Positions 5,888 to 22,395 of a stretch of 59,616 bases of DNA are shown piece by piece. The position numbers and the translations under genes are program-made. Each line of letters starts with the position of its first letter. Position 1 is the stretch's first letter. The notes under the pieces were generated by a model. The model was given only the letters and a program-made list of their open reading frames with translations. It had not been told where the DNA came from and made no database searches. Source of the DNA: Candidatus Undinarchaeota archaeon (GTDB taxonomy: Archaea > Undinarchaeota > Undinarchaeia > Undinarchaeales > UBA543); contig CAZMMZ010000006.1 in NCBI GenBank assembly GCA_964567575.1, positions 7,004 through 66,619 on the forward strand, read 5' to 3'.

Positions 5888-8179
5888 ATGACAAAATGTA
5901 GTGATAGACGCACGGCTGCTTCATTAACAATAAAAATAATAATGGCAATTTTTTTGCTTATTATATCTGTTCCATCTGTTCAAGCAGAAGAACAAAAAAG
6001 TTTTGTGTTAAATTCTGATAATCCAAGTTTTACATTTTTTGAATCAAAAATAGTTGAAAATAACTTACCGATTACTATGGAATTCAATGAAGCAAATATT
6101 ATTCTAAAAACAATTAAAATTCCAAATAATGCTACTATCCTTTCTGCAACTATTTCTTTAACTACACTTAATAGATACCACCATATCTTTAATTGTTCAA
6201 ATTCTTGTGATGATTCTGAAAAGTGTGACGCACCGTCTCCTGAAAATTCTTCTAATTGGTCTTGTAATTATAATTCTTGGATGAGTATTCCTTTTACTGC
6301 AACTCGGGGTTGTAATACTCCTAATGCAATAAAAATCGGAGATTATTTTTATGGGGGAGTTGATGCTGGTGATTCTATTTGTAAAATAGATTCCGGGTGT
6401 ACTTGTGAATCATTTGGTCCAAAAAGCTGTATTGGAGAAAGAAAATCTTGTAATAAAGGAGATAATATTTCTGTTGATTGGTGGATAGAAACAATACCTG
6501 ATGGAAATCCATTTGGACCTCCAGATGACCCAGTTGATATCTATCGTATTCCTGCTATATATCGAGCAAGATGGAGAAACCGAGATGGGTGGAAATGTTT
6601 TGATTGGGGAACCCATAACCTTCCTATCGAAGAATTTTACATTATTGATTCTACTAAATCGGTTCAAATGAATTATTCTTATGATTTAGATGCTGGCATA
6701 GATAATCAACAAAATCTTGAATCAACGTGTCCTCAAAATTATCAAAGTGAAGATAAAACTAATTTAACATATCCAACTCCTGCTCTTGATATTGGTAATA
6801 ATGGTGCTGATTGGACCCCTGGACTACAAGAAAACGAGATAGAGTATAATATTAATATCGCAAGTGTTCTTCAAAATTATTTAAATGAAACTGAATGTGA
6901 AAATGATATTTGTGAAATTCCTTTTAACTTTACATCTGAAACAGCCGGAGCATTGCGAATCAATAACATTTCAATTTCATATTCTTATTCACCTGAAGGG
7001 GTGGATAAAAAAGCAGAACTTAATTCCAAAGATATTATGTTAGGAGATACGATTTACAAAGCAGATAGGATAACTTTTGCAAAAGGAAAGAATCAAGATA
7101 TTCTTTTAAAATATTATGACATTAGGAATAATTCTACAACATGCTGGCAAGATAATCAAAAAAAAGATATTGTTGAAATTAATGAAAACAGAGTTTGTGA
7201 TATAGAAGATATCAATTGGGATAAGAATAAAACCCCGGTTAGTATGCTTATTTGGTCTGATCAACACGAACTTGTTGAAGGTCCTTTTTATTCTTCAAAA
7301 GATGCGACAGTTACACCAGTAACAGCAACTTCTTACAAGTTTTCAGCTAGTGTAACGTTTCCAAATAATGAATTAGAAAATTCAACTGTTAATGTCACGT
7401 TAAATTTAGAAAATTTTTCTAATTGGAATAACAGTAATAATTTTACTCTTTATATAGAAGGAAATAAAACAAATTACTCTATTAATGATAAACAGTTAGG
7501 ATTTACTTTTCAATCCACTTTAAAGGGAAATTATTCAATACAAATAAGATATACGATTCCTCCATTAAAATCAATTATATCAAGTAATAGTGGGGTTCCA
7601 GAACCACCTCGTAGTCGTGGGGGTGGGGGGCGTTCATCTCCAAATCCAGAAAAAGAAACAGTAAAAGAATCTTTTGATATTCAATATGACGCTACAATTG
7701 GTCTTTTAGCTCCGGTTTCTAACGAAATCGATATACAAGAAGACCAAGTAACAACAAAAAGTACTCCTATATCCGGCTTTTTGACATTAGCTCAATTGAA
7801 AACTCCAACAAGTAAAATTATTACTGGATTAATTGCAGGAATCTTAATTGTTGTAACACTCGCAACAAGATTAGAATATAAAACTTCATTACCAAAACTT
7901 CCAAAAACAAAACCAAGCACCCCTGTTATTGAACCGCAACTTAACAAACATATGGAAACAATTTTGAAAGGTTTAAGTTTCCGTGAACAAGAAATTTTAA
8001 AAACAATAATGAAACAGGATGGCCATATGACTCAAGCTAGAGTATATCATAAAACTGGAATCCCAACAACTTCACTTTCTCGTTGGATGGATACTTTAGA
8101 ACGAAAAGGTCTTGTTGAATCCTCACGTCGTGGAAAACTAAGAGATTTAAAAGTGACAACGAAATTCACTGGAGATTAA
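5888..8179 (+). CDS. Large secreted Cys-rich protein with TM helix and C-terminal winged HTH (MarR-like)
   Basis: Signal peptide ending VQA, Cys-rich region, Gly/Ser/Pro linker, TM helix IITGLIAGILIVV, then LSFREQEILKTI...TQARVYHKTGIPTTSLSRWMDTLERKGLV wHTH. Confidence 0.8.
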   Translation: MTKCSDRRTAASLTIKIIMAIFLLIISVPSVQAEEQKSFVLNSDNPSFTFFESKIVENNLPITMEFNEANIILKTIKIPNNATILSATISLTTLNRYHHIFNCSNSCDDSEKCDAPSPENSSNWSCNYNSWMSIPFTATRGCNTPNAIKIGDYFYGGVDAGDSICKIDSGCTCESFGPKSCIGERKSCNKGDNISVDWWIETIPDGNPFGPPDDPVDIYRIPAIYRARWRNRDGWKCFDWGTHNLPIEEFYIIDSTKSVQMNYSYDLDAGIDNQQNLESTCPQNYQSEDKTNLTYPTPALDIGNNGADWTPGLQENEIEYNINIASVLQNYLNETECENDICEIPFNFTSETAGALRINNISISYSYSPEGVDKKAELNSKDIMLGDTIYKADRITFAKGKNQDILLKYYDIRNNSTTCWQDNQKKDIVEINENRVCDIEDINWDKNKTPVSMLIWSDQHELVEGPFYSSKDATVTPVTATSYKFSASVTFPNNELENSTVNVTLNLENFSNWNNSNNFTLYIEGNKTNYSINDKQLGFTFQSTLKGNYSIQIRYTIPPLKSIISSNSGVPEPPRSRGGGGRSSPNPEKETVKESFDIQYDATIGLLAPVSNEIDIQEDQVTTKSTPISGFLTLAQLKTPTSKIITGLIAGILIVVTLATRLEYKTSLPKLPKTKPSTPVIEPQLNKHMETILKGLSFREQEILKTIMKQDGHMTQARVYHKTGIPTTSLSRWMDTLERKGLVESSRRGKLRDLKVTTKFTGD

Positions 8180-8268
8180 TCTTATATAATATTATACCAA
8201 TTAACTAACTCATACCTAAAGAAAATAATCAAAAAAAGACATTTCGTGAAACATACCACTATCTTGGA

Positions 8269-8556
8269 ATGCATGAGATGTATGTTCAACAAAAAGAAGA
8301 AGAACAAAAAGAAAATGAACAACTTTTATCAGAACTTACTTTTTTAGAATCAACTAGATTTGTTGAATCTATGAAATATGTTTTTAGAATCATACAAGGT
8401 ATATCAGGTCAAGGGAGAGGAATTTGTCCGAATGAATTTTATAGTAATCTTGAACATCTTCTTTCAGCCAGGTATCTTTATTCTAAGAAATTAGATAAAT
8501 TTAATTTTGAACCAGAAAAAATTAAAACAGAACAAGGACTTCGACTTTTTTTATAA
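8269..8556 (+). CDS. Hypothetical protein
   Basis: 95-aa ORF in an otherwise empty AT-rich gap; no recognisable motif. Confidence 0.5.
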   Translation: MHEMYVQQKEEEQKENEQLLSELTFLESTRFVESMKYVFRIIQGISGQGRGICPNEFYSNLEHLLSARYLYSKKLDKFNFEPEKIKTEQGLRLFL

Positions 8557-8606
8557 ATTCAAAAATTTTAAGAAAAACAAAATTACATTTAAAAAATATA
8601 AAAGAT

Positions 8607-8867
8607 ATGTTTGATGAAACAAAAAATACAGTACGATGGGATAGAAAATTACTTTGGGGAGAATATCACCATTTGAAAATAGCATTACTTAAAATAACAA
8701 AACAATTATCATGGTTTAATTTTTCTATAAAACTTCATAAACTTACACGAGAAAAGGCATATGCACTTAACACTCTGACAAAATTGGAAGAAGATATGAA
8801 ACAAAAGAAAAATACAAAAGAACTTTTAGATAATTTAGATACAGATATACATAAATTGAAATACTAA
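8607..8867 (+). CDS. Hypothetical protein
   Basis: 86-aa helical, basic ORF; no recognisable motif. Confidence 0.5.
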   Translation: MFDETKNTVRWDRKLLWGEYHHLKIALLKITKQLSWFNFSIKLHKLTREKAYALNTLTKLEEDMKQKKNTKELLDNLDTDIHKLKY

Positions 8868-8880
8868 TTCTAAACGTAAA

Positions 8881-9048
8881 CTATATAAGGACAAAATTTC
8901 GTGTAATAGTCACCATTAGGGGAATAATTGCCCTCTGGCATAGCGTATAATTATAGGCCAAGGCATAGAACCAACTAGTTCTATGCGTTTTTGATTGTAC
9001 GTTGCCGCTTAATTGAGGTGATAGCGGACACAAATATAAACTACTACA
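8881..9048 (+). promoter_or_regulatory. Promoter and structured 5' leader of the rpl3 superoperon
   Basis: TATA-like CTATATAAG at 8881; perfect 9-bp stem 8963-8971/8978-8986 followed by GTTTTT; CCGCT/AGCGG hairpin at 9005-9027. Confidence 0.55.
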
Positions 9049-10017
9049 ATGCCCAGTACAAAATCTCCGCGACGCGGATCTATGGCATACAGTCCAAGGA
9101 AAAGGGCTCGTCGAATTTATCCTAGAGTACACTCTTGGCCTCAATTAAAAGAAACAAAGGTTCTCGGTTTTGCTGGTTATAAAGCAGGTATGACACATGC
9201 TTTTGTTAAGGATAACAGAAAAGACACTCCAACAGCCAATAAGGAAGTCTTTACACCTCTGACAATTATCGAGTGTCCACCGCTCATTGTTTATGGCCTT
9301 CGATCTTACAAAAAAACTCCATATGGGCTCAAAGTGATGGGCGAACAGCACATGTCAAATCCTTCAAAAAGTCTTTCTCGTAAAATCATACTTTCAAAAA
9401 AACCTTCTACTTCTTCAGATGATCTTTCTGGTGACGTTGTCACCCTCATTCTTCATTCTCAACCAAAAACTGCTGTTGGCAAAAAAACTCCTGAAATTTT
9501 TGAATGCCATATCGGCGGTGAAAATTTTGAACAGCAATATACTTATGCAAAAGAACTGCTCGGCAAAGAAATAAAAGTTTCAGATATTTTCAAAGTGGGT
9601 GACTTTATTGATGTTATTGCAGTTACAAAAGGAAAAGGTACACAAGGACCTGTAAAAAGATTCCACGTTAAAACACAACCTCGTGTTAAAAACAAAAAGA
9701 AACGACACATTGGTACTCTTGGTGGAAGAGGTACTGCAACTAGATGGACTGTACCACAAGCAGGACAACTTGGTTTTTTCACACGAACTGAATATAACAA
9801 ACGCATAATCAAACTTGGTGATAAAGGAGCAGAAGTTACTCCAAAGAGCGGTTTTGTAAATTACGGAAATGTGAATGGCGAATATATTGCTATAAAGGGA
9901 TCAGTTCCTGGTCCTAACAAGCGACTTATTCGATTCAGACCAGCTTTACGACACTTTGTAGATTTAGGTGATCCAAATGTCACTTACCTAAGTGTTGAAT
10001 CCAAGCAGAGACGATAA
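9049..10017 (+). CDS. rpl3: 50S ribosomal protein uL3
   Basis: SPRRGSMAYSPRKRA, GFAGYKAGMTH and TKGKGTQGPVKRF motifs. Confidence 0.98.
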   Translation: MPSTKSPRRGSMAYSPRKRARRIYPRVHSWPQLKETKVLGFAGYKAGMTHAFVKDNRKDTPTANKEVFTPLTIIECPPLIVYGLRSYKKTPYGLKVMGEQHMSNPSKSLSRKIILSKKPSTSSDDLSGDVVTLILHSQPKTAVGKKTPEIFECHIGGENFEQQYTYAKELLGKEIKVSDIFKVGDFIDVIAVTKGKGTQGPVKRFHVKTQPRVKNKKKRHIGTLGGRGTATRWTVPQAGQLGFFTRTEYNKRIIKLGDKGAEVTPKSGFVNYGNVNGEYIAIKGSVPGPNKRLIRFRPALRHFVDLGDPNVTYLSVESKQRR

Positions 10018-10019
10018 AC

Positions 10020-10862
10020 ATGAAAACTGATGTATTAGATATACAAGGGAAGAAAAAAGGCAGCATAGACTTGCCTAAAATGTTTAACGAAGTTTATCGC
10101 CCAATTATAATTAAAAAATCGTTCCTTTCATACACAAGTTGGAACTACCAGGCAAAAGGTGCCGATCCTTTAGCAGGTCAAAAAACAGCTGCTGTATCTT
10201 GGCAAACTGGTGCTGGAAAATCAATCATGCCACGAGTTAAACCTGGCCCACATAGAGGTGGAAGAAATGCAAAAGGACACAGATACAGAAGTAAAGGTCG
10301 CTGGTTCAGAATGGCTGGACGATATTTAATTGCGCCTGGAACTGTTGGTGGTCGACAAGCTCACCCTCCAAAGGCACAAAAAAACATAATCAAAAAAGTC
10401 AATAATAGAGAAATGGATCTTGCTCTCGCTTCAGCTATAACAGCAACTACAAGTAATGAAATGGTAAGATCTCGTGGTCACGCAATTGATGAAAAATTAG
10501 TATTGCCAATTGTTGTTGATACTGCACTTGAAGAAATAAAGACAACCAAAGAAGCAAAAACTGTGTTGACTGCACTTGGTTTAGATGCAGACATTTCAAG
10601 ATGTTCTAAAATTAAAGTTCGAAGCGGACGTGGAAAAACAAGAGGTCGAAAATACAAAACAAAAGTTGGTCCATTGTTTGTTGTCTCAGAAGAAAAAGGA
10701 TTAGATGTAGCTGCAAGAAATATCAAAGGCGTTGATATTGTAACAGTTGATGATCTTAATATTGAGCTCCTTGCACCTGGTGCAACTGCCGGTAGATTAA
10801 CTGTCTGGACAAAAGGAGCAATTGAACAAATATCAAAAAACGGAACAGAGGTTGAACAATGA
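10020..10862 (+). CDS. rpl4: 50S ribosomal protein uL4
   Basis: GADPLAG, PGTVGGRQAHPP and LLAPG...GRLTVWT motifs. Confidence 0.97.
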   Translation: MKTDVLDIQGKKKGSIDLPKMFNEVYRPIIIKKSFLSYTSWNYQAKGADPLAGQKTAAVSWQTGAGKSIMPRVKPGPHRGGRNAKGHRYRSKGRWFRMAGRYLIAPGTVGGRQAHPPKAQKNIIKKVNNREMDLALASAITATTSNEMVRSRGHAIDEKLVLPIVVDTALEEIKTTKEAKTVLTALGLDADISRCSKIKVRSGRGKTRGRKYKTKVGPLFVVSEEKGLDVAARNIKGVDIVTVDDLNIELLAPGATAGRLTVWTKGAIEQISKNGTEVEQ

Positions 10863-12229: not shown

Positions 12230-12820
12230 ATGGCAAGTATAAAATACGCATATCAAGGTGAGAACGAAAATACAGCTCGAGCTTTGGCTCGAAATGTCAG
12301 AATCTCAAACAAAGAAGCGTATGAAGCCGCAAATGCAGCTCGGGGAAAGACAGTTACACGAGCAAAGAAATTCTTTGCAAATGTTATTGAAACTAAAGAA
12401 GCAATCCCATATAAACGATATAATAGTGGTGTTCCACATCGAGCTGGAATTGGCCCAGGAAGATATCCAAAAAACACTTCACAAGCTATGATCAAACTAT
12501 TGAATGAAGTTGAAGCAAATGCAGAAGCACGCGGCCTAAACACTGATGTTCTTAAAATAACACATCTTGCAGTTCATAAAGCAACCCAATTACGAGGAAG
12601 CTTCAAAGGATCTTCACAATATAGTCCAATGACACACATTGAAATTATTGTAAAAGAAATGGAAGAATCAAAAAAAGCTACAAAACCTGAAAAGAAAGAA
12701 GAACCAGTAGAAAAAAAAGAAACCAAAAAAGAAGAAAAACCTTCTGAGAAAAAGGAAGAGAAAAAAATTGAACCAAAAAAAGAAGAAAAAAAACCTGACA
12801 AAAAGGAGGATTCACAATAA
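12230..12820 (+). CDS. rpl22: 50S ribosomal protein uL22 with Lys/Glu-rich tail
   Basis: GRYPKN, NAEARGLN and THIEII motifs. Confidence 0.96.
   Translation: MASIKYAYQGENENTARALARNVRISNKEAYEAANAARGKTVTRAKKFFANVIETKEAIPYKRYNSGVPHRAGIGPGRYPKNTSQAMIKLLNEVEANAEARGLNTDVLKITHLAVHKATQLRGSFKGSSQYSPMTHIEIIVKEMEESKKATKPEKKEEPVEKKETKKEEKPSEKKEEKKIEPKKEEKKPDKKEDSQ
12770..12810 (+). repeat. Dispersed tail/SD repeat, copy 1 (end of rpl22)
   Basis: 39 of 41 nt identical to 15305-15345 (end of rpl24). Confidence 0.75.
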
Positions 12821-13602
12821 TGGCAATTGAAAGAAAATTCATCTTAGAACAACTCAAAAAACTTAAAATTCACCAATATATCCATGGAGAACTTGATAGA
12901 GTCGGTTGTGGAGACATTGAGGTAAAAAGAACACCTTTAGGAAATCGTGTTGTAATCCACTCTACTCGTCCTGGTCTTGTAATTGGAAGGAAAGGGAAAA
13001 ATATTGAGATGCTTACAAACGCTCTCAAAAATCGTTTCAAAATTGATAATCCACAAATCGAAGTTAAAGAAATCGCAAAACCAGAATATGACCCAACAAT
13101 AATGGCAACACAACTTGCGGGAACTCTTGAAAGAGGAATTCATTTCCGAAGATCTTCATACGGTCTTGTAAGACAAATCATGAAGTCAGGAGCACTTGGT
13201 TGTGAAATCACAATTTGCGGAAAAGTAAGTGGTGGACGAACAAGAACTGAAAAATTCAAAGCTGGATACATAAAACACTGTGGAGATACTGCAGATAAAT
13301 ATGTAAAAAATGCAGTTACTCAAGCAAAATTAAAAGCTGGTGTTCTTGGAATAAAAGTAAAAATCACCCCTCCAGTAACTGGAGCATCCCGATTCAATCA
13401 ATTAGAATTAATAAAAGCAAAACCTGAAGAACCAAAAGAAGAGAAAAAAGAAGAACCGATCGAAAAGAAAGAACAGGTGAAAGAAGAAAAACAAGAATCA
13501 AAAAAAGAAGAAAAGAAAGAAAAACCAAAAGCAAGCAAAAGCAAAACAGATAAAAAAGAAAAGAAAGAGAAAAAACCTGATAAAAAGGAGGAAAAGAAAT
13601 AA
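12820..13602 (+). CDS. rps3: 30S ribosomal protein uS3 with Lys/Glu-rich tail
   Basis: KH-domain RPGLVIGRKG; LERGIHFRR and GVLGIKVKI motifs. Confidence 0.97.
   Translation: MAIERKFILEQLKKLKIHQYIHGELDRVGCGDIEVKRTPLGNRVVIHSTRPGLVIGRKGKNIEMLTNALKNRFKIDNPQIEVKEIAKPEYDPTIMATQLAGTLERGIHFRRSSYGLVRQIMKSGALGCEITICGKVSGGRTRTEKFKAGYIKHCGDTADKYVKNAVTQAKLKAGVLGIKVKITPPVTGASRFNQLELIKAKPEEPKEEKKEEPIEKKEQVKEEKQESKKEEKKEKPKASKSKTDKKEKKEKKPDKKEEKK
13566..13600 (+). repeat. Dispersed tail/SD repeat, copy 2 (end of rps3)
   Basis: 34 of 35 nt identical to 15319-15353. Confidence 0.75.
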
Positions 13603-13811
13603 TGGCTGTAATAAGAACCAGTGAACTTCGGTCAATGACTGAAAAAGAACTAAGTGCTAAACTTACAGAAATTGAAAAAGAAATTACAAGCCAAAATGCA
13701 AAACTTGCTGCTGGTGGTATGGCTGATAATCCTGGCAAACTAGCTGAAATGAAAAAGATAGTTGCGAGAATAAAAACAATTTCAAAGGAGAAAAAAATAA
13801 GATATGAGTGA
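13602..13811 (+). CDS. rpl29: 50S ribosomal protein uL29
   Basis: ELRSM, NPGKL..MKK.VARIKT motifs. Confidence 0.96.
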
Positions 13812-14109
13812 AATCTGCAATAAATGTGGATTGCCCAAGGAACTTTGTGCCTGCGGCGATATAGCCAAAGAGACACAAAGTGCAATAAAACTCTACACTG
13901 ATAAAAGACGATACGGAAAATACGTAACAATCATTGAAGGTGTAGAACAAGACTCTGCGGATGGAGATCTTGGCGCATTTGCAAAAGAGCTAAAAAGTCA
14001 CTGTGCTTGCGGTGGAACTGTAAAAGATGGAAAAATCGAACTACAAGGAAACCACATAAAAAAAGTGAAAGAAAAGCTCGCAAATATGGGCTTCAGCATT
14101 GGAAAATAA
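13804..14109 (+). CDS. sui1: Translation initiation factor SUI1/aIF1 homolog
   Basis: N-terminal [11 protein letters not shown]; KRRYGK.VT and [10 protein letters not shown]...IELQG motifs. Confidence 0.96.
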
Positions 14110-14134
14110 TAATCAATCATAAACGGTGAAAAAA

Positions 14135-14437
14135 ATGACTAAGGAAGAATGTATTGACAAGAACTGCCCACAGCACGGGACAATAAGCAAGCGAGGCTTT
14201 AAACTAGAAGGTACTGTTGTCTCTGATAAAATGAAAAAAAGCGTAGTTGTTGAAATAAACCGCGTTAGAAAAATCCAAAAGTTCAAACGATATGAAAAAA
14301 GACGAACAAAAATTCATGCTCACAACTCATCTTGCATTAATGCAAAAAAAGGAGACATTGTTGTAATACGCGAATGCAAACCAATCAGCAAAACAAAATC
14401 CTTTGTTGTTGTAGAGAAAAAAGAGGATAAACAGTAA
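14135..14437 (+). CDS. rps17: 30S ribosomal protein uS17
   Basis: [15 protein letters not shown] and ECKPISKTK motifs. ATG 14135 chosen because GGTGA lies just upstream. Confidence 0.96.
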
Positions 14438-14439
14438 AA

Positions 14440-14868
14440 ATGGGAAAAGTAAGAAAGAAACTCAAAGCACACATAAAAGTGAAGGGCAATATAACCAAAT
14501 CTTTACCAGCTAAGGCTCGACTTGTGTGCGCTGATAATACTGGAGCAAAGATCCTTGAAATAATCACAGTTAAATTACATAAAGGCAGAAAACGACAACT
14601 TGCAAAAGCAGGAATCGGCGACATGGTTATTTGCTCTGTCAAAGAAGGTGGACCTGACATAAAAAAAACAGTTGTTCCTGCAATCGTAATCAGACAAAAG
14701 AAAGAAGTATTCCGTGCTGACGGCACTCGAATGAAATTCGAAGATAATGCAGCTGTTATAGTAACGCCTGAAGGAGAACCTAAAGGAAGTGAAATACGAG
14801 GACCGGTTGCAAGAGAAGCAATACAAAAATGGTCTGGTATTGCAAGCGCTGCAAAAATAGTGGTATAA
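14440..14868 (+). CDS. rpl14: 50S ribosomal protein uL14
   Basis: [13 protein letters not shown] and FEDNAAV motifs. Confidence 0.97.
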
Positions 14869-14869
14869 A

Positions 14870-15355
14870 ATGAAAACAAAATATGCAAACACATGGAAAT
14901 GCTCTGTACAACCAAGAAAACAGAGGAAATATCTAGCGAATGCTCCACTTCATGTTAAACAAAAATTAGTTTCAGTTCATTTAGATAAGAAATTAAGAGA
15001 AAAATTAGGACGACGCTCCTTATCGGTTAGAAAAGGAGATGAAGTAAAAATAATGCGCGGAAAAAGAAAAGGAAGTCAAGCAAAAGTTTCTGCAGTAGAT
15101 CTAAAAAAAGGCCGTGTTTATTTGGAAGGACAAACAAGAGATAACATCCGAGGAACTAAAGTAATTATCCCATTTGCACCTTCAAATTTGCTTATGATCA
15201 CTAGTGTTGATGACAAACGAAGAAACAGAAAAGGAACAAAAGTTGTTAAGAAAAAAATTGAACCAAAACCATCAACAAAAAAAGAAAAACCAGTGAAAAA
15301 AGTAGAACCAAAAAAAGAAGAGAAAAAACCTGAGAAAAAGGAGGAAAAGAAATGA
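14870..15355 (+). CDS. rpl24: 50S ribosomal protein uL24 with Lys/Glu-rich tail
   Basis: QPRKQRK...NAPLH and VRKGDEVKIMRG (KOW) motifs. Confidence 0.96.
   Translation: MKTKYANTWKCSVQPRKQRKYLANAPLHVKQKLVSVHLDKKLREKLGRRSLSVRKGDEVKIMRGKRKGSQAKVSAVDLKKGRVYLEGQTRDNIRGTKVIIPFAPSNLLMITSVDDKRRNRKGTKVVKKKIEPKPSTKKEKPVKKVEPKKEEKKPEKKEEKK
15305..15353 (+). repeat. Dispersed tail/SD repeat, copy 3 (end of rpl24)
   Basis: Matches both the rpl22 and rps3 3' ends; contains AAGGAGGA at 15338-15345. Confidence 0.75.
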
Positions 15356-16017
15356 GTCACTTAAAACGATTAGCAGCACCAAAGAGCTGGAACATTGCAA
15401 GAAAAGAAAGAAAATTCATAACAAAAAATAGCCCAGGTCCACATAAACAGGAGCAATCAATTCCTTTAGTTGTGCTTTTAAGAGATATGTTAAATGTAGT
15501 TAAAAATGCAAAAGAATCAAAGAAAATTCTTTATGAAGGATTAGTTCTTGTAAATGGAAAAAAGAGAAGAAAGAACGACTTTTCAGTTGGTTTAATGGAT
15601 ATTCTCGAACTCCCTCTTGCAAAGAAAATTTACAAAATTACAATCAGCAAAAAAGGAAAACTTTACGCAGAAGAAATAGAATCTGCAAAAGATCATTTAT
15701 GCAGAATTGAGGGGAAAACTATTCTTGAAAAAGGAAAAGTTCAACTTAATCTGTTTAGCGGAGAAAATGTCATTGTTGATAAAGACGAATACAAAGTTGG
15801 GGATGTAATAAAACTCAGCCTTAAAGATCATAAATTAACAGGAAACGTTGTTCTAAGTAATGGAACTTCAGCGTTAATCATTGGTGGAAGCCACGTTGGA
15901 CAAATTGTTACAATAAAAGGAATTGACAAGAGTATCACACCAACAGAAGTTCTACTTGAAGATGCTGAAAAGAAAGAAATCAGAACAAGATTGTATAATG
16001 TTTACCCAATAGAGTGA
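15352..16017 (+). CDS. rps4e: 30S ribosomal protein eS4
   Basis: HLKRLAAPKSW, PGPH, LLRD.L and GLMD motifs. Confidence 0.97.
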   Translation: MSHLKRLAAPKSWNIARKERKFITKNSPGPHKQEQSIPLVVLLRDMLNVVKNAKESKKILYEGLVLVNGKKRRKNDFSVGLMDILELPLAKKIYKITISKKGKLYAEEIESAKDHLCRIEGKTILEKGKVQLNLFSGENVIVDKDEYKVGDVIKLSLKDHKLTGNVVLSNGTSALIIGGSHVGQIVTIKGIDKSITPTEVLLEDAEKKEIRTRLYNVYPIE

Positions 16018-16022
16018 AAAAA

Positions 16023-16520
16023 ATGAAAGAAATAAAAATAAACAAAGTAGTAGCGAATATCGGTGTAGGAGAATCCGGTGAAAAGCTTCAGAAAGCAGAG
16101 AAGCTCTTACAGGATCTTACAGGTCAAAAACCAGCAAGAGGTATCTCAAAGGCTACACACCCAGAATTCGGCGTAAAGAAACACGCACCTATTGGTACAA
16201 AGGTTACACTTAGGAAAAAAATAGCAGTTGATTTCCTAAAAAAAGCATTTGAAGCTATTGAAAATAAAGTTGATCGTAAAAAATATGATCAATTTGGAAA
16301 TCTTTCATTTGGAATTCACGAATATATTGAAATGCCTGGAACACAATATGATCCAGATATTGGTATGTTTGGGATGGATGTATCAGTAAATTTAGAAAGA
16401 GCAGGATACAGGATTGCACGAAGAAAAAAATGCCAAAGAAAAATCCCATTATCTTCACGAATCACAAAAGAGGAAGCCATGGACTTCTTCAAGAAAAACT
16501 TTGGAGTAGAAACTGAATAA
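16023..16520 (+). CDS. rpl5: 50S ribosomal protein uL5
   Basis: VVANIGVGESG, IGTKVTLR and YDPDIGMFGMD motifs. Confidence 0.97.
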   Translation: MKEIKINKVVANIGVGESGEKLQKAEKLLQDLTGQKPARGISKATHPEFGVKKHAPIGTKVTLRKKIAVDFLKKAFEAIENKVDRKKYDQFGNLSFGIHEYIEMPGTQYDPDIGMFGMDVSVNLERAGYRIARRKKCQRKIPLSSRITKEEAMDFFKKNFGVETE

Positions 16521-16666
16521 TGACAAATAGAAAACACGGAAAAGCAACAAAAAAATGCAGGCTTTGCGGAGCACATGACCGAGTTATACGAAAGTATAAT
16601 CTGTATATTTGCGGTCGGTGTTTCAGAGAAGTTGCTCCACAAATGGGATTCAAGAAATATAGTTAG
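16520..16666 (+). CDS. rps14: 30S ribosomal protein uS14 (Zn type); absent from the ORF track
   Basis: Own translation: MTNRKHGKATKKCRLCGAHDRVIRKYNLYICGRCFREVAPQMGFKKYS (CxxC...CxxC). Confidence 0.96.
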   Translation: MTNRKHGKATKKCRLCGAHDRVIRKYNLYICGRCFREVAPQMGFKKYS

Positions 16667-16676
16667 GAGATAAAAG

Positions 16677-17063
16677 ATGTTACACGACCCACTTGCAAAC
16701 ACATTGAATAACTTGAAACTGTATGAAAAGACAGGAAAGAACGACTGTATAGTCTATCCAGCTTCAAGCCTAATCAAAGAAACATTACAAGTAATGAAAG
16801 ACAGCGGATATATTGGAAGCTTTGAACAAGTAGAAAATAACGAAGCTGCATTAAAAGTCAGGCTCATTGGTAAAATTAACAGTTGTGGAGTTATAAAACC
16901 ACGATATCCTGTTAAATTAAATGAAATTGAAGAATATGAGAAACAGTATCTACCAGCAAAGAACTTTGGAGTACTTTTAATTAGTACCCCACAAGGAATA
17001 ATGACGCATGATGCTGCTCGAGAAAAGAAAACAGGAGGAATATTACTCGCTTACGTTTACTAA
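16677..17063 (+). CDS. rps8: 30S ribosomal protein uS8
   Basis: DPLAN, GYIGSF, YLPAKNFG and STPQGIMTH motifs. Confidence 0.97.
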   Translation: MLHDPLANTLNNLKLYEKTGKNDCIVYPASSLIKETLQVMKDSGYIGSFEQVENNEAALKVRLIGKINSCGVIKPRYPVKLNEIEEYEKQYLPAKNFGVLLISTPQGIMTHDAAREKKTGGILLAYVY

Positions 17064-17064
17064 A

Positions 17065-17595
17065 ATGGCAAAGAAAAAAGAAAGAACAATTGAAATTCCT
17101 GAAGGAATTGCCACAACCATAGAAGGGACAATTGTTAAGATAAAAGGAGAGAAAGGAGAACTTCAGAAAGAGTTCTGCTATCCTGGAGTTTCTTTAAAAC
17201 AAGAAAGTAATAAAATAACAATCGCAGCAGAAACAGCTTGCAAAAAACACAGATCAGTTGTTGGAACATATGAATCACATTTAAAAAACATGTTCAAAGG
17301 AGTAACAGAAGGTTACACTGCAACAATGAAAGCAGTATACGCCCACTTCCCAATCACAATAAAACAAGCAGAAAATGTGATAGAAGTTCATAATTTCCTT
17401 GGAGAAAAAGTTCCTAGAAAAGGTAAAATACATGGAGATGCGCAAGTAAAAATCCAAAAAGACGATGTTACAATTGAAGGAATAAACAAAGAAGATGTTG
17501 GACAAACTGCAGCAAATATTGAACTTGCAACAAGAATCAAAAATAAGGATACACGTGTATTCCAAGATGGAGTGTATATAACACAGAAACCATGA
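17065..17595 (+). CDS. rpl6: 50S ribosomal protein uL6
   Basis: YAHFPI, NFLGEK and DTRVFQDGVYI motifs; start at MAKKKE. Confidence 0.97.
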   Translation: MAKKKERTIEIPEGIATTIEGTIVKIKGEKGELQKEFCYPGVSLKQESNKITIAAETACKKHRSVVGTYESHLKNMFKGVTEGYTATMKAVYAHFPITIKQAENVIEVHNFLGEKVPRKGKIHGDAQVKIQKDDVTIEGINKEDVGQTAANIELATRIKNKDTRVFQDGVYITQKP

Positions 17596-17981
17596 CCGAA
17601 GAAAAAAAAGACATAATCAAAGTGAGAAAAGGACTTTTAGCTAGTCAGAAAAAGAAAAAAGTAAAATTCAAGAGACAGAATTTCTGGCGATACAAAAGAC
17701 TAAAGGATGCTTGGAGAAAACCTAGAGGCCGAACTGGTAAAATGAGATTAAAACGTGGCGGAAAAATGCCATCACCGGGTCCTGGTTATGCAAATCCAGC
17801 AATAATCAAACACTTACACCCAAGTGGATACGAAGAGGTGTATGTATCATGTTCAAAAGATCTTGAAGGAATAAATCAAGAAACACAAGCAGTCAGATTT
17901 AGTGGAACACTTGGAAAGAAAAAGAAAGAAGTGTTACTTGAACAAGCTAACAAAGCAGGACTAAAGGTGCTGAACAAATGA
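17592..17981 (+). CDS. rpl32e: 50S ribosomal protein eL32
   Basis: KFKRQ, WRKPRG and LHPSGYEEV motifs. Confidence 0.96.
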   Translation: MTEEKKDIIKVRKGLLASQKKKKVKFKRQNFWRYKRLKDAWRKPRGRTGKMRLKRGGKMPSPGPGYANPAIIKHLHPSGYEEVYVSCSKDLEGINQETQAVRFSGTLGKKKKEVLLEQANKAGLKVLNK

Positions 17982-18418
17982 AAACACAAAAGAGACTTGC
18001 AGCAAAGATCCTTAAAATCGGAAAAACCAGTGTTTGGATTGATCCAGAACAAAAAGAAGAAGTATCTGGAGCTATGACTCGAGGAGATGTTCGAAAATAT
18101 ATTGGTCTTGGAATGATTAAAGCAAAACCAAAAGTTGGAAACTCCCGAGGAAGAATCAGAAAAAGACAAGCGCAAAAAGCAAAAGGACGACAATCTGGTC
18201 AAGGAAAAAGAAAAGGAACTGCAAATTCACGTTCAAATAAAAAACACGCTTGGATGAATAGAATCCGAGCACAACGTTCATTGCTTAAAAAACTCAGAGA
18301 TGAAGAAAAAATTAGCACAGCAATTTACAGAAAAACATATCGCCTTGCTAAAGCTGGAATATTCAAAAGTCGAGCATATGTTATTACATATTTAAAGGAG
18401 AACGCAGAGAAACAATGA
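17978..18418 (+). CDS. rpl19e: 50S ribosomal protein eL19
   Basis: QKRLAA, VWIDP, G.RKGT and WMNRIRAQR motifs. Confidence 0.97.
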   Translation: MKTQKRLAAKILKIGKTSVWIDPEQKEEVSGAMTRGDVRKYIGLGMIKAKPKVGNSRGRIRKRQAQKAKGRQSGQGKRKGTANSRSNKKHAWMNRIRAQRSLLKKLRDEEKISTAIYRKTYRLAKAGIFKSRAYVITYLKENAEKQ

Positions 18419-18930
18419 AAAAAATAAACAAGAGCAGATTATTCAAACGGAGGATAGAAGGTAAAACTGATTACCAAAAAAGGCTACGTTTGTTAAAATC
18501 GCGTAAAGCTCGATTAGTAGTTAGAAAGAGTTTGAAGAATACTCGCGTTCAACTTGTTGATTATTCACCAGACGGAGATGTAATTATAGCAAGTGCAATT
18601 TCTGGAGAATTAAAAAAACTAGGATGGAAATATAGCTGTTCAAACACTCCAGCAACTTATTTAACAGGACTTCTTTGTGGAAGTAAAGCAATAAAAGCTG
18701 ATAAAAAAGAAGCGGTGCTTGATATTGGTATTAACAGACCAATAAACGGTTGCAAACTTTACGCTGCACTTAAAGGTGCAATTGATGCAGGAATGGAAAT
18801 ACCGCACGGAGAAGAAGCATTACCAAAAGAAGAAAGAATATTCGGAGCTCACATTCAAAATCAAAAATCAGAAGAAATAAAGAAAGCTGTTGAAGATTTG
18901 AAAACAAAAATTCTTGGGGGTAAAAAATGA
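18415..18930 (+). CDS. rpl18: 50S ribosomal protein uL18
   Basis: RRIEGKTDYQKR, RLVVRKS and YLTGLLCG motifs. Confidence 0.96.
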   Translation: MKKINKSRLFKRRIEGKTDYQKRLRLLKSRKARLVVRKSLKNTRVQLVDYSPDGDVIIASAISGELKKLGWKYSCSNTPATYLTGLLCGSKAIKADKKEAVLDIGINRPINGCKLYAALKGAIDAGMEIPHGEEALPKEERIFGAHIQNQKSEEIKKAVEDLKTKILGGKK

Positions 18931-19709
18931 AACCAAAGAGAAGACAATTCAAAAAAAGACAAGAAAAAGAACCAAAAATATGGATTCCTTGTACTGAACT
19001 CGGAAAACTTGTAAAATCTGAAAAAATAGACAGCCTAGATACAATTTGGGAACGCGGTAAAACAATAAAAGAACCTGAAATTGTTGATTTCTTTTTATCT
19101 GGACTTGAAGAAAGAATCCTAAAAATCGGAAAAGGAAAACGTCCATTCAGATGGGTTCAAAGAATGACTGATTCAGGTCGAAGAAGCAAATATGTTGTTG
19201 CAGCTGCTACTGGTAATAAAGATGGATATGTTGGTGTAGGTGTTGGCCGAGCAAAAGAATACGGAACAGCAATTAGTAGTGCAATAAGAAAAGCAAAATT
19301 AAATACTATCAAAGTTGAGCGTGGATGTGGATCATGGGATTGCGGTTGTTCTGAAGAACACTCAATTCCAACAGAAGTTTCAGGAAAATGCGGAAGTGTT
19401 CAAATCAAACTTATACCAGCTCCACAAGGAACTGGATTAGCAGTCAGTGATATTTCAAGAGATGTTTTAGAACTTGCAGGTGTTAAAGATCTTTGGTCTG
19501 TTTCAAAAGGGCATACAGCAACACGAACAAACACTGCTCTTGCAACATTTGAAACTTTGAAAGAACTTTCAAAAATCAAACTCCTTAAACCACGAGTAAG
19601 AAAAAAAAGAGTAAAAGAACCAGTTAAAGAAGAAAAACCTGAAGAGAAAAAAGCAGAAGTAAAAAAGGAAGAAACAAAACCTGAAAAGAAAGAGGAAGAA
19701 AAGAAATGA
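18927..19709 (+). CDS. rps5: 30S ribosomal protein uS5 with Lys/Glu-rich tail
   Basis: VQRMTDSGRR, GCGSW.CGC and LIPAPQGTGL motifs. Confidence 0.97.
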   Translation: MKPKRRQFKKRQEKEPKIWIPCTELGKLVKSEKIDSLDTIWERGKTIKEPEIVDFFLSGLEERILKIGKGKRPFRWVQRMTDSGRRSKYVVAAATGNKDGYVGVGVGRAKEYGTAISSAIRKAKLNTIKVERGCGSWDCGCSEEHSIPTEVSGKCGSVQIKLIPAPQGTGLAVSDISRDVLELAGVKDLWSVSKGHTATRTNTALATFETLKELSKIKLLKPRVRKKRVKEPVKEEKPEEKKAEVKKEETKPEKKEEEKK

Positions 19710-20056
19710 AAATTGCAGTAATTAGAATAAGAGGCGAGGTTAGGAAAACCCCAGATACCGTAGCTACATTGAAGTATCTGAAACTCTTTCACAAAAATCA
19801 ATGTTCAATTTTTGAAGATTCCCCACAAACCCAAGGAATGTTAAGAAAAGTCGGTGGTTATGTAACATGGGGACCTGTTAATGACGCATTAATTAAAGAA
19901 CTACAAGAAAAAAGAGGAAAAGATCAAACTCATTTCAAATTAAGCCCACCAAGAAAAGGTTTTGGCCGTGGAGGAATTAGAAAATATATTAAAATGAATG
20001 GAGCTTGCGGAGGCCGGGGTGAAGCTATTGAGGAACTTTTACGGAGGATGATGTAA
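19706..20056 (+). CDS. rpl30: 50S ribosomal protein uL30
   Basis: AVIRIRG, V.GYVTWG and FKLSPPRKGF motifs. Confidence 0.94.
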   Translation: MKIAVIRIRGEVRKTPDTVATLKYLKLFHKNQCSIFEDSPQTQGMLRKVGGYVTWGPVNDALIKELQEKRGKDQTHFKLSPPRKGFGRGGIRKYIKMNGACGGRGEAIEELLRRMM

Positions 20057-20508
20057 TGGCATATTCAAAAATTAGACAGCACAGAGGAAGAAAGAATTGT
20101 GGAGGACACAAAAAGAAAAGACGTGGTGCTGGAAATCGTGGTGGACGTGGAAATGCTGGTTTAAGTAAGCACAAATTTACATGGGTTACAAAAAATAATC
20201 CAAAATATTTCTGCAAACCAAGTATGAAACCAAGCATGAACAAAACACCAACTATGAACTTAACTCAAATTGATAATATCGTATTAAAGGAAGGCAGAAA
20301 GGACTTTGATTTCAGTGATTACAAAATTTTAGGGAAGGGAAATATTTCCCAAGCAATAAAAATCAAAGCTCAAAGCTTTTCTCAGAAAGCTCTTGAAAAG
20401 ATTCAGAAAGCCGAGGGAACTGCGGAAGCTTTATATGCTGAAACAACTGAAACAAAACAAGAGACGAAAACCGAGTCTGAACCTTCAGACAAGGTCGAAA
20501 CTAAATAA
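20056..20508 (+). CDS. rpl15: 50S ribosomal protein uL15
   Basis: RGAGNRGGRGNAG, KILGKG and FSQKALEKI motifs. Confidence 0.96.
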   Translation: MAYSKIRQHRGRKNCGGHKKKRRGAGNRGGRGNAGLSKHKFTWVTKNNPKYFCKPSMKPSMNKTPTMNLTQIDNIVLKEGRKDFDFSDYKILGKGNISQAIKIKAQSFSQKALEKIQKAEGTAEALYAETTETKQETKTESEPSDKVETK

Positions 20509-20527
20509 ACCGATAAGGTGTTACTAA

Positions 20528-21937
20528 ATGTCATTTAAGACTCTACTTCAATCACTTCCAAGTGTCGTTCAACCAAAAGGACAACTTGGTTTTAAAGATA
20601 AGATTAAGTGGACTACAATAGTTCTTGTTACATTTTATATTCTCGGAGAAATTACACTGTTTGGACTTGAAGCAGGAGCAACAGGAGATATTTTTGGTGA
20701 ATTGCGTGTCATTATGGCAAGTAAATTCGGTACCATAATCACACTTGGTATTGGACCGATTGTTATGGCATCGATTATTCTTCAGCTTTTATCTGGAGCT
20801 GGTGTATTCAAATTTGATATGACGACAAAGGATGGAAAAGCAACATATCAAGGTGCTCAGAAACTTCTTGCAGTTGTGTTTACACTTTTTGAAGGAGGAA
20901 TTTTAGTATTTGCAGGACAAATCGTACCGTCTACTGCGCTTGTTGCATCTTATGGTGGGTTAATAGCGAATAGCATATTACTATTACAAATAATGATAGG
21001 AGGGTTGATTATATTATATCTAGACGAGATAATATCGAAATGGGGCTTTGGTTCAGGAATTGGACTTTTCATTGCAGCTGGAGTATCATATGAAATTATT
21101 CTCAGAGCAGTTGATCCAATGAGACTTGGTGCAGGACAGCCAATAAACGGTGCAATCCCCGCTTTCGTATCTTCATTTGCAAGCGGATCAATACAATTTA
21201 TCCGGCAGTATCCAAATGACATGCTAGCGTTATTTGCGACAATATTGGTGTTTGTGGTTACGATGTATGCTCAAAGTATTAAAGTTGAAGTGCCGATTTC
21301 GTACGGACGTATACGAGGACTTTCACGACGCTATCCATTACCATTTGTTTACGCTTCTAACATGCCAGTTATTTTCCTTGCAGCTTTAATTGCAAACTTC
21401 AGATTCTGGGTTGCAATCTTACAAAAAGCTGGTGTAAGAATATTTGGTTATTTTGACCCGAGTGGAGCTGCACACGGAGCAATATCTTACATCTTACCAT
21501 ATAATCGATTTGTAAAAGACATCTTTTTCCACACAGTTGGTTACAGCGAAGTGTTACATGCTGTCTGTTACATGTCTGTAATGATAATTGGTTCTATTCT
21601 TTTCTCAAAACTGTGGGTTAGTGTATCTGGAATGACATCAGCTGACTTATCTGAAAAATTATCAAACGCAGGAATGCAAATACCTGGATTTAGAAGTGAT
21701 AAACGAGTTATTGAAAAAGTTCTACAGCGATATGTCCCATATCTAACGGTTCTAGGTGGTGCATTTGTTGGTTTACTTGCAGCAGCAGCAGAGATGACTG
21801 GAGCGCTGGGTGGTGGTACTGGAGTACTGCTTACCGTAGGTATTATTTACCAACTCTATCAACAAATTGCTTCTGAACAACTTGCAGAAATGCATCCAGC
21901 AATTCGAAGCTTTATGGGCGAAGGAGGAATATTATAA
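20528..21937 (+). CDS. secY: Protein translocase subunit SecY
   Basis: LGIGPIV.ASII, KWGFGSGIGLFI, YASNMPVI and GTGVLL motifs; about 10 TM helices. Confidence 0.98.
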   Translation: MSFKTLLQSLPSVVQPKGQLGFKDKIKWTTIVLVTFYILGEITLFGLEAGATGDIFGELRVIMASKFGTIITLGIGPIVMASIILQLLSGAGVFKFDMTTKDGKATYQGAQKLLAVVFTLFEGGILVFAGQIVPSTALVASYGGLIANSILLLQIMIGGLIILYLDEIISKWGFGSGIGLFIAAGVSYEIILRAVDPMRLGAGQPINGAIPAFVSSFASGSIQFIRQYPNDMLALFATILVFVVTMYAQSIKVEVPISYGRIRGLSRRYPLPFVYASNMPVIFLAALIANFRFWVAILQKAGVRIFGYFDPSGAAHGAISYILPYNRFVKDIFFHTVGYSEVLHAVCYMSVMIIGSILFSKLWVSVSGMTSADLSEKLSNAGMQIPGFRSDKRVIEKVLQRYVPYLTVLGGAFVGLLAAAAEMTGALGGGTGVLLTVGIIYQLYQQIASEQLAEMHPAIRSFMGEGGIL

Positions 21938-22395
21938 TGATAAATTTACTAAATTATCCAATAGTGTTTATTGGAACAGTTTCAGTTGTTCTTTCACTGA
22001 TTTTAACACTTGTAAATAAAGTGATTGTAGATCAAGGGAGAATGAAAGAAATCCAGAAAAAAGTTTCAGTGTATAACAAGGAACTTATGAAAGCAACAAA
22101 ATCAAAAGATCAAGCAAAAGTTGCCGAAATGAACAAAGAAAAACCACAAATTATGCAAATGCAACAAGAAATGATGAAAATGCAAATGCCGATGTTCATG
22201 TCAATGGTTCCATTCATTCTGGTTTTCATGTTCCTTAAAAGACTGGCAGTATCAATGGATTGGGGCGTTATAATTCAACTCCCATTTAATTTGCCAGTAC
22301 TAGGGATAAATAATTCTTTCACATGGCTTGGATGGTACATCCTTTGTTCACTTCCATTCACAGCATTGTTCAGAAAGATTCTTGGCGTAAAATGA
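21937..22395 (+). CDS. DUF106 / EMC3-TMCO1-like (Oxa1 superfamily) membrane protein
   Basis: TM, coiled coil, Met-rich segment, TM; GWYILCS; conserved position after secY. Confidence 0.88.
   Translation: MINLLNYPIVFIGTVSVVLSLILTLVNKVIVDQGRMKEIQKKVSVYNKELMKATKSKDQAKVAEMNKEKPQIMQMQQEMMKMQMPMFMSMVPFILVFMFLKRLAVSMDWGVIIQLPFNLPVLGINNSFTWLGWYILCSLPFTALFRKILGVK

Follow-up and report, generated by a model that had tools for sequence, protein, structure and literature searches.

Does the stretch of about 140 nt upstream of rpl3 in an Undinarchaeales-like DPANN archaeon act as a regulatory RNA, and if so, of what kind and for which ligand? DPANN lineages have tiny genomes with few recognisable regulators, and we know of no cis-regulatory RNA in any of them. 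Very few such RNAs are known in archaea as a whole (PMC7247131). The DNA considered here, referred to as the window, is a stretch of 59,616 nt that forms part of contig 6 of an archaeal assembly (G000; 745 kb, 18 contigs, 35% GC), and all features described below are on its + strand. An earlier note on the window had pointed to a long, structured 5' leader of the rpl3 operon, and comparison to 11 relatives supports both the leader and its evolutionary conservation. The best reading of the evidence is a new lineage-specific ribosomal-protein leader that matches no Rfam family; that the element is indeed a structured cis-regulatory RNA of this kind, serving the uL3-uL4 operon, has in our estimate slightly better than even chances.

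Locus, promoter and start of rpl3

In the window, uL3 is encoded by the ORF at 9049-10017 and uL4 by the ORF at 10020-10862 (Pfam), with the usual long ribosomal-protein cluster downstream. Positions 8909-9048 are the 5' UTR of the uL3-uL4-uL23-uL2... operon mRNA. A TATA-like box had been noted at 8881 and is present (CTATATAA, 8881-8888); it belongs to a BRE/TATA-type archaeal promoter read in the sequence as AAACTATATAA (8876-8888), from which the usual spacing of about 26 nt places the predicted TSS at about 8909-8912. Each of the 12 leaders that we compared has an equivalent AAC(C/T)TTTATAWA box ahead of the element. No second TATA-like box was found at a workable distance from the rpl3 ATG, and no second promoter near it. 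Judged by these sequence features, a strong archaeal promoter stands about 140 nt upstream of rpl3. Just upstream of this promoter, the window has two AT-rich ORFs (8269-8867; 95 and 86 aa) that match no Pfam family, the second of which ends at 8867, 9 nt before the BRE/TATA box.

The leader ends in an A-rich spacer without SD and the rpl3 start codon (together 9028-9051, ATG at 9049-9051; from the sequence and the operon map). We consider the ATG at 9049 to be the true start because the coding sequence for the PRRGS segment, which lies upstream of the second Met, is conserved; this N-terminal region of uL3 is conserved in relatives. Public gene calls for uL3 of G000 and of several relatives begin at the second Met (window 9049-9084), which gives proteins of 311, 310 or 309 aa (P0001, P0003-P0006) that have lost the PRRGS segment. 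Further into the cluster, many genes have an SD of AAGGAGG type 6-10 nt ahead of their start (window 12770-22000, several junctions), unlike rpl3, rpl4 and others, which have none.

The leader is a local GC island, with a GC content of 0.38-0.40 versus 0.17-0.28 immediately upstream. Its MFE is -43.2 kcal/mol versus -33.5 +/- 3.7 for dinucleotide shuffles, which corresponds to z = -2.6 with 4 of 200 shuffles as good. Folding z-scores in relatives were -3.5, -3.1, -3.3 and -2.9, and three weaker leaders had -1.5, -1.3 and -1.1.

Conservation across the order

Leaders were taken upstream of the uL3 genes located in relatives, which include each of the 10 genomes of the order in which this upstream DNA could be read. 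A metagenome scan with the uL3 alignment gave 80 loci, and the motif described below was present in one of them only (L040). The leader set consists of G000 and 11 relatives (10 genomes and the metagenome contig L040), which makes 12 leaders in four families, all of a single order. A protein search gave about 12 more uL3 proteins at the level of the order (P0002, P0003, P0005-P0009, P0011-P0013, P0015, P0017, P0018), and their leaders were left out of the comparison. One relative's uL3, with 59% identity, carries the public name Candidatus Undinarchaeales. The phylum is represented by 17 genomes in the collections searched.

All 12 leaders have the strong promoter box, a length of 110-210 nt, the sequence GCCCUCU and a downstream G-rich motif, which is of the type RRGGKGRUU and is kept in all families. 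GCCCUCU is the identical part of a near-invariant motif, GCCCUCUGG (8930-8938), the final GG of which is AC in L040. This 9-mer occurs once in the 745-kb genome and stays near-invariant between families with just 55-60% identity in uL3. Nine leaders (families f1, f4 and f2) also carry CYA-N-GGC(A/G)U with a hairpin after it. In family f5, the three leaders are a short form that keeps GCCCUCUGG and the G-rich motif and has neither the 3' half of fold A nor the hairpin P4 (both described below).

A covariance model built on the 40-nt core (R1) found a single significant copy in each genome, in every case ahead of rpl3, with E-values between 1e-9 and 5e-5; the next-best matches had E >= 0.13 and were inside coding sequence. 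Second copies of the motif, as in a regulon, were sought by these genome searches and none was found. The motif was not detected in the phylum's other four genomes or in the 79 other metagenomic uL3 loci, and no homologue outside the order was found by R1 or by the helix 96 model R2 introduced below.

One could suppose that this is a GC-richer intergenic stretch with chance or unselected inherited hairpins and no function. The sequences are few, close kin share features by descent and three z-scores are weak, which would all fit. However, GCCCUCUGG has stayed near-invariant while uL3 has diverged, three helices show compensatory changes, and flanks and loops vary freely. We disfavour a lack of function and regard it as very improbable.

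The distance between the conserved core and the rpl3 AUG varies, with 70-107 nt of unrelated sequence in G010 and L040, and this brings up another explanation, namely that the element is a small non-coding RNA gene in its own right, about 80-115 nt long and either co-transcribed with rpl3 or processed from its transcript. In two leaders (G000, G002) the T5 run that follows P4 could release a product of about 80 nt folding as fold A plus P4. On the other hand, the element is a single copy always located before rpl3, it has no conserved terminator and no Rfam match, and there is no promoter-like box between element and rpl3, so that rpl3 depends on the same promoter. Such an RNA gene seems unlikely to us.

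Two of these leaders have features of their own between the core and rpl3. In G010 (locus L026) about 107 nt separate the G-rich motif from the rpl3 AUG, and the insert is an extra long hairpin of repeated GUAGCU-like units. In L040 a UUG-initiated frame of about 22 codons starts 6 nt past the AAGGG motif, and its UAA abuts the rpl3 AUG. This frame could provide translational coupling to rpl3; no such UUG reading frame was seen in the other leaders.

The stable fold

The predicted thermodynamic fold of the leader, denoted as fold B, consists of P1, P2, a long P3 and P4, and in the energy model it is far more stable than the alternative fold A. P1 is formed by UCACC (8910-8914) with GGUGA (9017-9021), in the MFE structure and in RNAalifold on three sequences of the genus. 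The earlier note had remarked that TCACC and GGTGA at these positions are complementary and that mutually exclusive folds may follow. The two segments are present, and the comparison among leaders supports mutually exclusive folds. Since CACC/GGUG is invariant in the genus, P1 itself shows no covariation; in G011 the closing helix is ACCUC/GAGGU in place of CACC/GGUG.

P2 is the hairpin AGGG(G)AA-UAA-UU(G)CCCU (8918-8934; MFE and RNAalifold). It contains the AGGG/CCCT hairpin of the earlier note, which exists but had been misplaced by 10 nt (8918-8921 with 8931-8934, not 8928-8944). Family f5 has an equivalent of P2 that likewise ends in CCCU. P3 with the enclosed P4 spans 8936-9007 (MFE and RNAalifold) and is an interrupted helix with pairings 8936-8940/9003-9007, 8943-8945/9000-9002 and 8947-8957/8988-8998. 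RNAalifold on the three genus sequences gave 38 pairs, 5 of which have compensatory changes, all five in P3, and family f4 has a helix analogous to P3. The apical hairpin P4 (8963-8986) was identified from the sequence, the MFE structure and a terminator scan. As had been noted, it is a perfect 9-bp stem (8963-8971/8978-8986) with a 6-nt loop, CAACUA, and GTTTTT comes next (8987-8992). Nine leaders retain P4, with a variable stem length and loop. Its pairs show compensatory changes among them, as in G008 and G005, where G-C replaces A-U.

The early hairpin

The alternative, fold A, is a hairpin at 8929-8965 with a small helix, a CUC bulge and a 4-bp helix. Its outer helix pairs UGCC (8929-8932) with GGCA (8962-8965), its inner helix pairs UGGC (8936-8939) with GCCA (8957-8960), and between the two are the CUC bulge (8933-8935) and a one-nt bulge (A, 8961). 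When only the nascent prefix of the leader is folded, without the 3' strand of P4 that is transcribed later, eight of nine leaders have fold A as their MFE structure; the exception is G000, whose own prefix has a different MFE structure. In family f2 it is also the unguided RNAalifold consensus.

The inner helix is paired in all nine leaders and has compensatory changes at three of its four pairs, the variants being UGGC/GCCA, UGGG/CUCA, UGGG/CCUA and UACG/CGUA. Its covariation score was reached by none of 500 shuffles, and slid controls collapse. The outer helix showed no compensatory change among the nine leaders and is not proven, because it never varies on both sides. Forcing fold A in full-length leaders costs 9-15 kcal/mol over the MFE (3.4 in L040), and kinetic trapping or a tight binder would be needed to hold it.

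Folds A and B share bases and are mutually exclusive, both have comparative support, and GCCCUCUGG is at their hinge. This suggests a switch. The simplest reading of the modelled energies is a kinetic two-state element, in which A would form first and B would replace it unless A is held. The element has two properties of a ribosomal-protein leader: it is located in the 5' UTR directly before a ribosomal-protein operon in 12 of 12 leaders (TSS inferred), and its structure covaries. Covariation in rpl3 upstream regions of relatives was a check that the earlier note had proposed, and it was found in P3, P4 and the inner helix of fold A. With only 12 leaders from four families, this covariation rests on few independent events.

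The T-run and the G-rich motif

The earlier note read P4 and the following T-run as a terminator or attenuator, and a scan for bacterial-type terminators did flag 8963-8986 with its T-run (3 sites in 800 nt versus 0.3 expected). The T5 run (8988-8992) is inside the 3' strand of P3, and its position is not conserved. It directly follows P4 in G000 and G002 only, and there is none in G001, which is of the same genus, in G011 or in f5. A T-run is found in the P4 loop in G008 and G005, and just before the G-rich motif in f2. A conserved hairpin-plus-U terminator is thus not supported: the combination is absent or displaced in the ten other leaders. A T5 run is, in addition, a weak archaeal terminator. 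The explanation to be weighed here is a transcription attenuator, in which P4 with GUUUUU is an intrinsic terminator governed by alternative pairings. Apart from the flagged site, it is favoured by the ability of archaeal RNA polymerase to terminate at oligo-T (cited in PMC7247131) and by the two folds, as the U-run is paired in B and free in A, so that they could gate a terminator. Given where the runs are located in relatives, we think such an attenuator quite unlikely as the general function of the leader; the U-run could be a genus-specific attenuation step.

Further downstream, a genus-specific hairpin (9005-9027) is formed by CCGCU (9005-9009) and AGCGG (9023-9027) as an alternative to P1, with the G-rich, SD-like GAGGUGAU in its loop (9015-9022). 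The earlier note described CCGCT/AGCGG enclosing GAGGTGAT (9015-9022), which is present as described, and called the latter SD-type; as the SD of rpl3 it is not supported, at 26 nt from the ATG. The hairpin is invariant within the genus, and outside the genus nothing corresponds to it. Every base of GAGGUGAU is complementary to the 3' end of 16S rRNA, GAUCACCUCCU, as read in 16S genes of three relatives and a 16S fragment from the same genus. SD-like motifs of G000 peak 5-10 nt from starts, and the homologous G-rich motif in relatives is 20-107 nt from the AUG; with these distances GAGGUGAU is not an ordinary SD, and the spacers do not fit an SD-sequestering leader either. No upstream ORF follows the motif in G000, which has no start codon at SD distance from it. 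The G-rich motif is a closing-helix strand in nearly every predicted fold, and in these models GAGGUGAU behaves as a structural strand rather than as the SD of rpl3. It is possibly a masked ribosome-loading site.

The last point belongs to a further explanation, in which the leader is a structured 5' UTR without protein feedback that protects the long mRNA from 5' decay, or in which GAGGUGAU is a distal stand-by or loading site. In its favour, stable fold B begins near the predicted 5' end, a G-rich motif is kept in all families, GAGGUGAU is a perfect complement of the 16S 3' end, and rpl3, unlike many downstream genes with AAGGAGG at 6-10 nt, has no SD within 20 nt. The pairing of the motif in nearly every predicted fold and its distance from the AUG argue against a stand-by site, and passive stabilisers rarely keep a near-invariant 9-mer or a second, exclusive and covarying fold. 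We regard a leader of this kind as possible but clearly a minority view, and retain the ribosomal-protein leader as the preferred reading.

Comparison to helix 96 of 23S rRNA

In G000 the 23S gene is not assembled and the 16S gene is a 5' fragment at a contig end (C2:1-693), so the comparison to 23S was made with rRNA of relatives. Their helix 96, just past the sarcin-ricin loop, reads GUGGC / CUC / UGG ... CUA / C / GCCAU, and the Rfam archaeal LSU consensus agrees in its helix of 5 bp, bulge of 3 nt, helix of 3 bp and bulge of 1 nt. In the leaders the sequence is UGCC / CUC / UGGN ... NCCA / N / GGCA. Fold A and helix 96 share their layout, and their letters are identical at the C-G closing pair, CUC, UGG and, in G010, CUA.

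A plain local alignment of leader and 23S was at null level, not above shuffles. A covariance model trained on six rRNA helix 96 sequences only (R2) aligns the leaders of G010, G002 and G011 as proposed, with 13.7, 11.5 and 10.3 bits compared to 9-14.5 bits for unrelated matches, and with E-values of 0.44, 1.8 and 4.2 in 95 kb. With a search limited to leaders these E-values would become small, but helix 96 was picked post hoc among about 150 rRNA helices, which cancels most of the gain. As the matches are at noise level (E 0.4-4), mimicry of helix 96 is a lead and not a result. R2 gave no match in the rpl3 loci of 90 other archaeal lineages, and the missing 3' half of fold A in family f5 was counted against mimicry. 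We treat imitation of helix 96 by fold A as a hypothesis, and a rather improbable one.

In L136 (G014; same phylum, other order) and in G019 the bulge of helix 96 is CAC, not CUC. G014 is also without the leader motif, and these are too few data to call co-variation between rRNA and leader. A separate candidate was the likeness between GAGGUGAUAG and GAGGGUGAUAG, a segment of 23S domain I close to the classical L4/L24 region. It was rejected because GGG in the rRNA is paired with CCC across a loop of 7 nt, a context that the leader does not have, and because the match is limited to family f1.

In the human 80S ribosome, the internal loop of H96 and the H94-H97 junction adjoin eL31 and uL3 (preprint, bioRxiv 10.64898/2026.10.06.757013). 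Contacts to H96, H101 and uL14 have been described for eL24 or bL19 (PMC11354259), and the globular domain of uL3 organises domain VI (PMC9935924; PMC8536713). With uL3 located near helix 96 and domain VI in this literature, the first product of the operon is an attractive candidate ligand.

Comparison to known leaders and RNA families

We compared the leader to known RNA classes, starting with Rfam, a comparison that the earlier note had also called for. No family matches the leader or the relatives' loci: cmscan gave noise only for window 8000-9600 (E <= 10) and for eight relatives' loci (E <= 1). No tRNA or tmRNA was detected near the element, and Rfam models and tRNA detection gave no match to the C/D, H/ACA, SRP, RNase P and tRNA-like classes. 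By inspection, the defining features of a bulge-helix-bulge, a k-turn (GA after the bulge), an H/ACA pocket and C/D boxes are absent, and these candidates were rejected.

Ribosomal-protein leaders are lineage-specific and often imitate rRNA. In archaea, the L1 mRNA site of Methanococcus is a leader with such imitation. Imitation of rRNA has also been proposed for the eL15 leader and for the S15 leader of Halobacteria and Methanomicrobia (PMC7247131). Fold A is like these three in being a proposed mRNA copy of an rRNA helix-bulge motif that binds surplus protein. It is unlike them in the proteins and motifs, and in that imitation of helix 96 is below statistical significance and contact of a ligand with the bulge is putative.

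The nearest described system is a borderline candidate L4 leader upstream of rplC-rplD-rplW-rplB in Archaeoglobi (Eckert & Weinberg 2020, PMC7247131). Both are structured archaeal 5' UTR motifs predicted by comparative genomics, with a guessed ligand. The Archaeoglobi candidate is from a different phylum, and neither rRNA mimicry nor a two-state fold was reported there (PMC7247131). Our leader had no match to any ribosomal-protein leader among 4227 Rfam families, which may not include the Archaeoglobi motif.

In the S10-operon leader of Escherichia coli, L4 regulates by attenuation and translational repression. That leader also precedes an operon with L3 and L4 and has a hairpin by a U-run and a structure stabilised by protein, which for our leader is proposed. 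The differences are that S10 is the first gene there, that the organism is a bacterium with NusA-dependent termination, and that the U-run here is not conserved. No similarity in sequence or model between the two leaders was found. The S10-operon/L4 leader is named as a precedent in PMC7247131.

Proposed regulation

Under the preferred reading of a ribosomal-protein leader, fold A would form first as the transcript emerges, and fold B would replace it when transcription has passed through the 3' strands of P4 and P3. A surplus of a free ribosomal protein encoded by the operon would then bind the leader, the likely site being around GCCCUCUGG, be it within fold A or where P1, P2 and P3 meet. 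Binding may shift the balance between A and B and lower expression of the operon; candidate outputs are blocked initiation of translation, decay and partial termination at the U-run. Feedback by a ribosomal protein, with control of the whole 16-kb cluster, is what we infer from this arrangement.

No expression platform is evident, and the spacer to the AUG ranges from 20 to 107 nt among leaders. In many MFE folds the invariant motif pairs with the rpl3 start region (CUGGCAU versus AUGCC(C)AG), with duplex energies in the top 4-24% only of 724 background start regions. Pairing of the motif with the first rpl3 codons as a readout is, on these models, a weak possibility.

As for the ligand, the likeness of fold A to the base of helix 96, in domain VI of 23S rRNA, makes uL3 a first guess. 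A guess of uL4 would follow the bacterial precedent, as the autoregulator at the equivalent operon in bacteria is L4. The most specific version is a co-transcriptional two-state switch in which fold A copies helix 96 and free uL3, as the primary binder of domain VI and the operon's first product, captures it before P3 and P4 form, shutting the operon; we find this version doubtful.

Conclusions

Were the uL3 switch to be true, no leader that senses uL3 would have been known before it in any domain of life, and DPANN archaea would have their first characterised riboregulator. If the resemblance to helix 96 is real, uL3 would join the autoregulatory ribosomal proteins. At about 115 nt the element is small and well suited to study in vitro with recombinant proteins, an advantage for an organism that is uncultured (MAG). 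A conserved, apparently bistable leader before the largest ribosomal-protein cluster would offer a testable handle on the balance between ribosomal proteins and rRNA in DPANN archaea.
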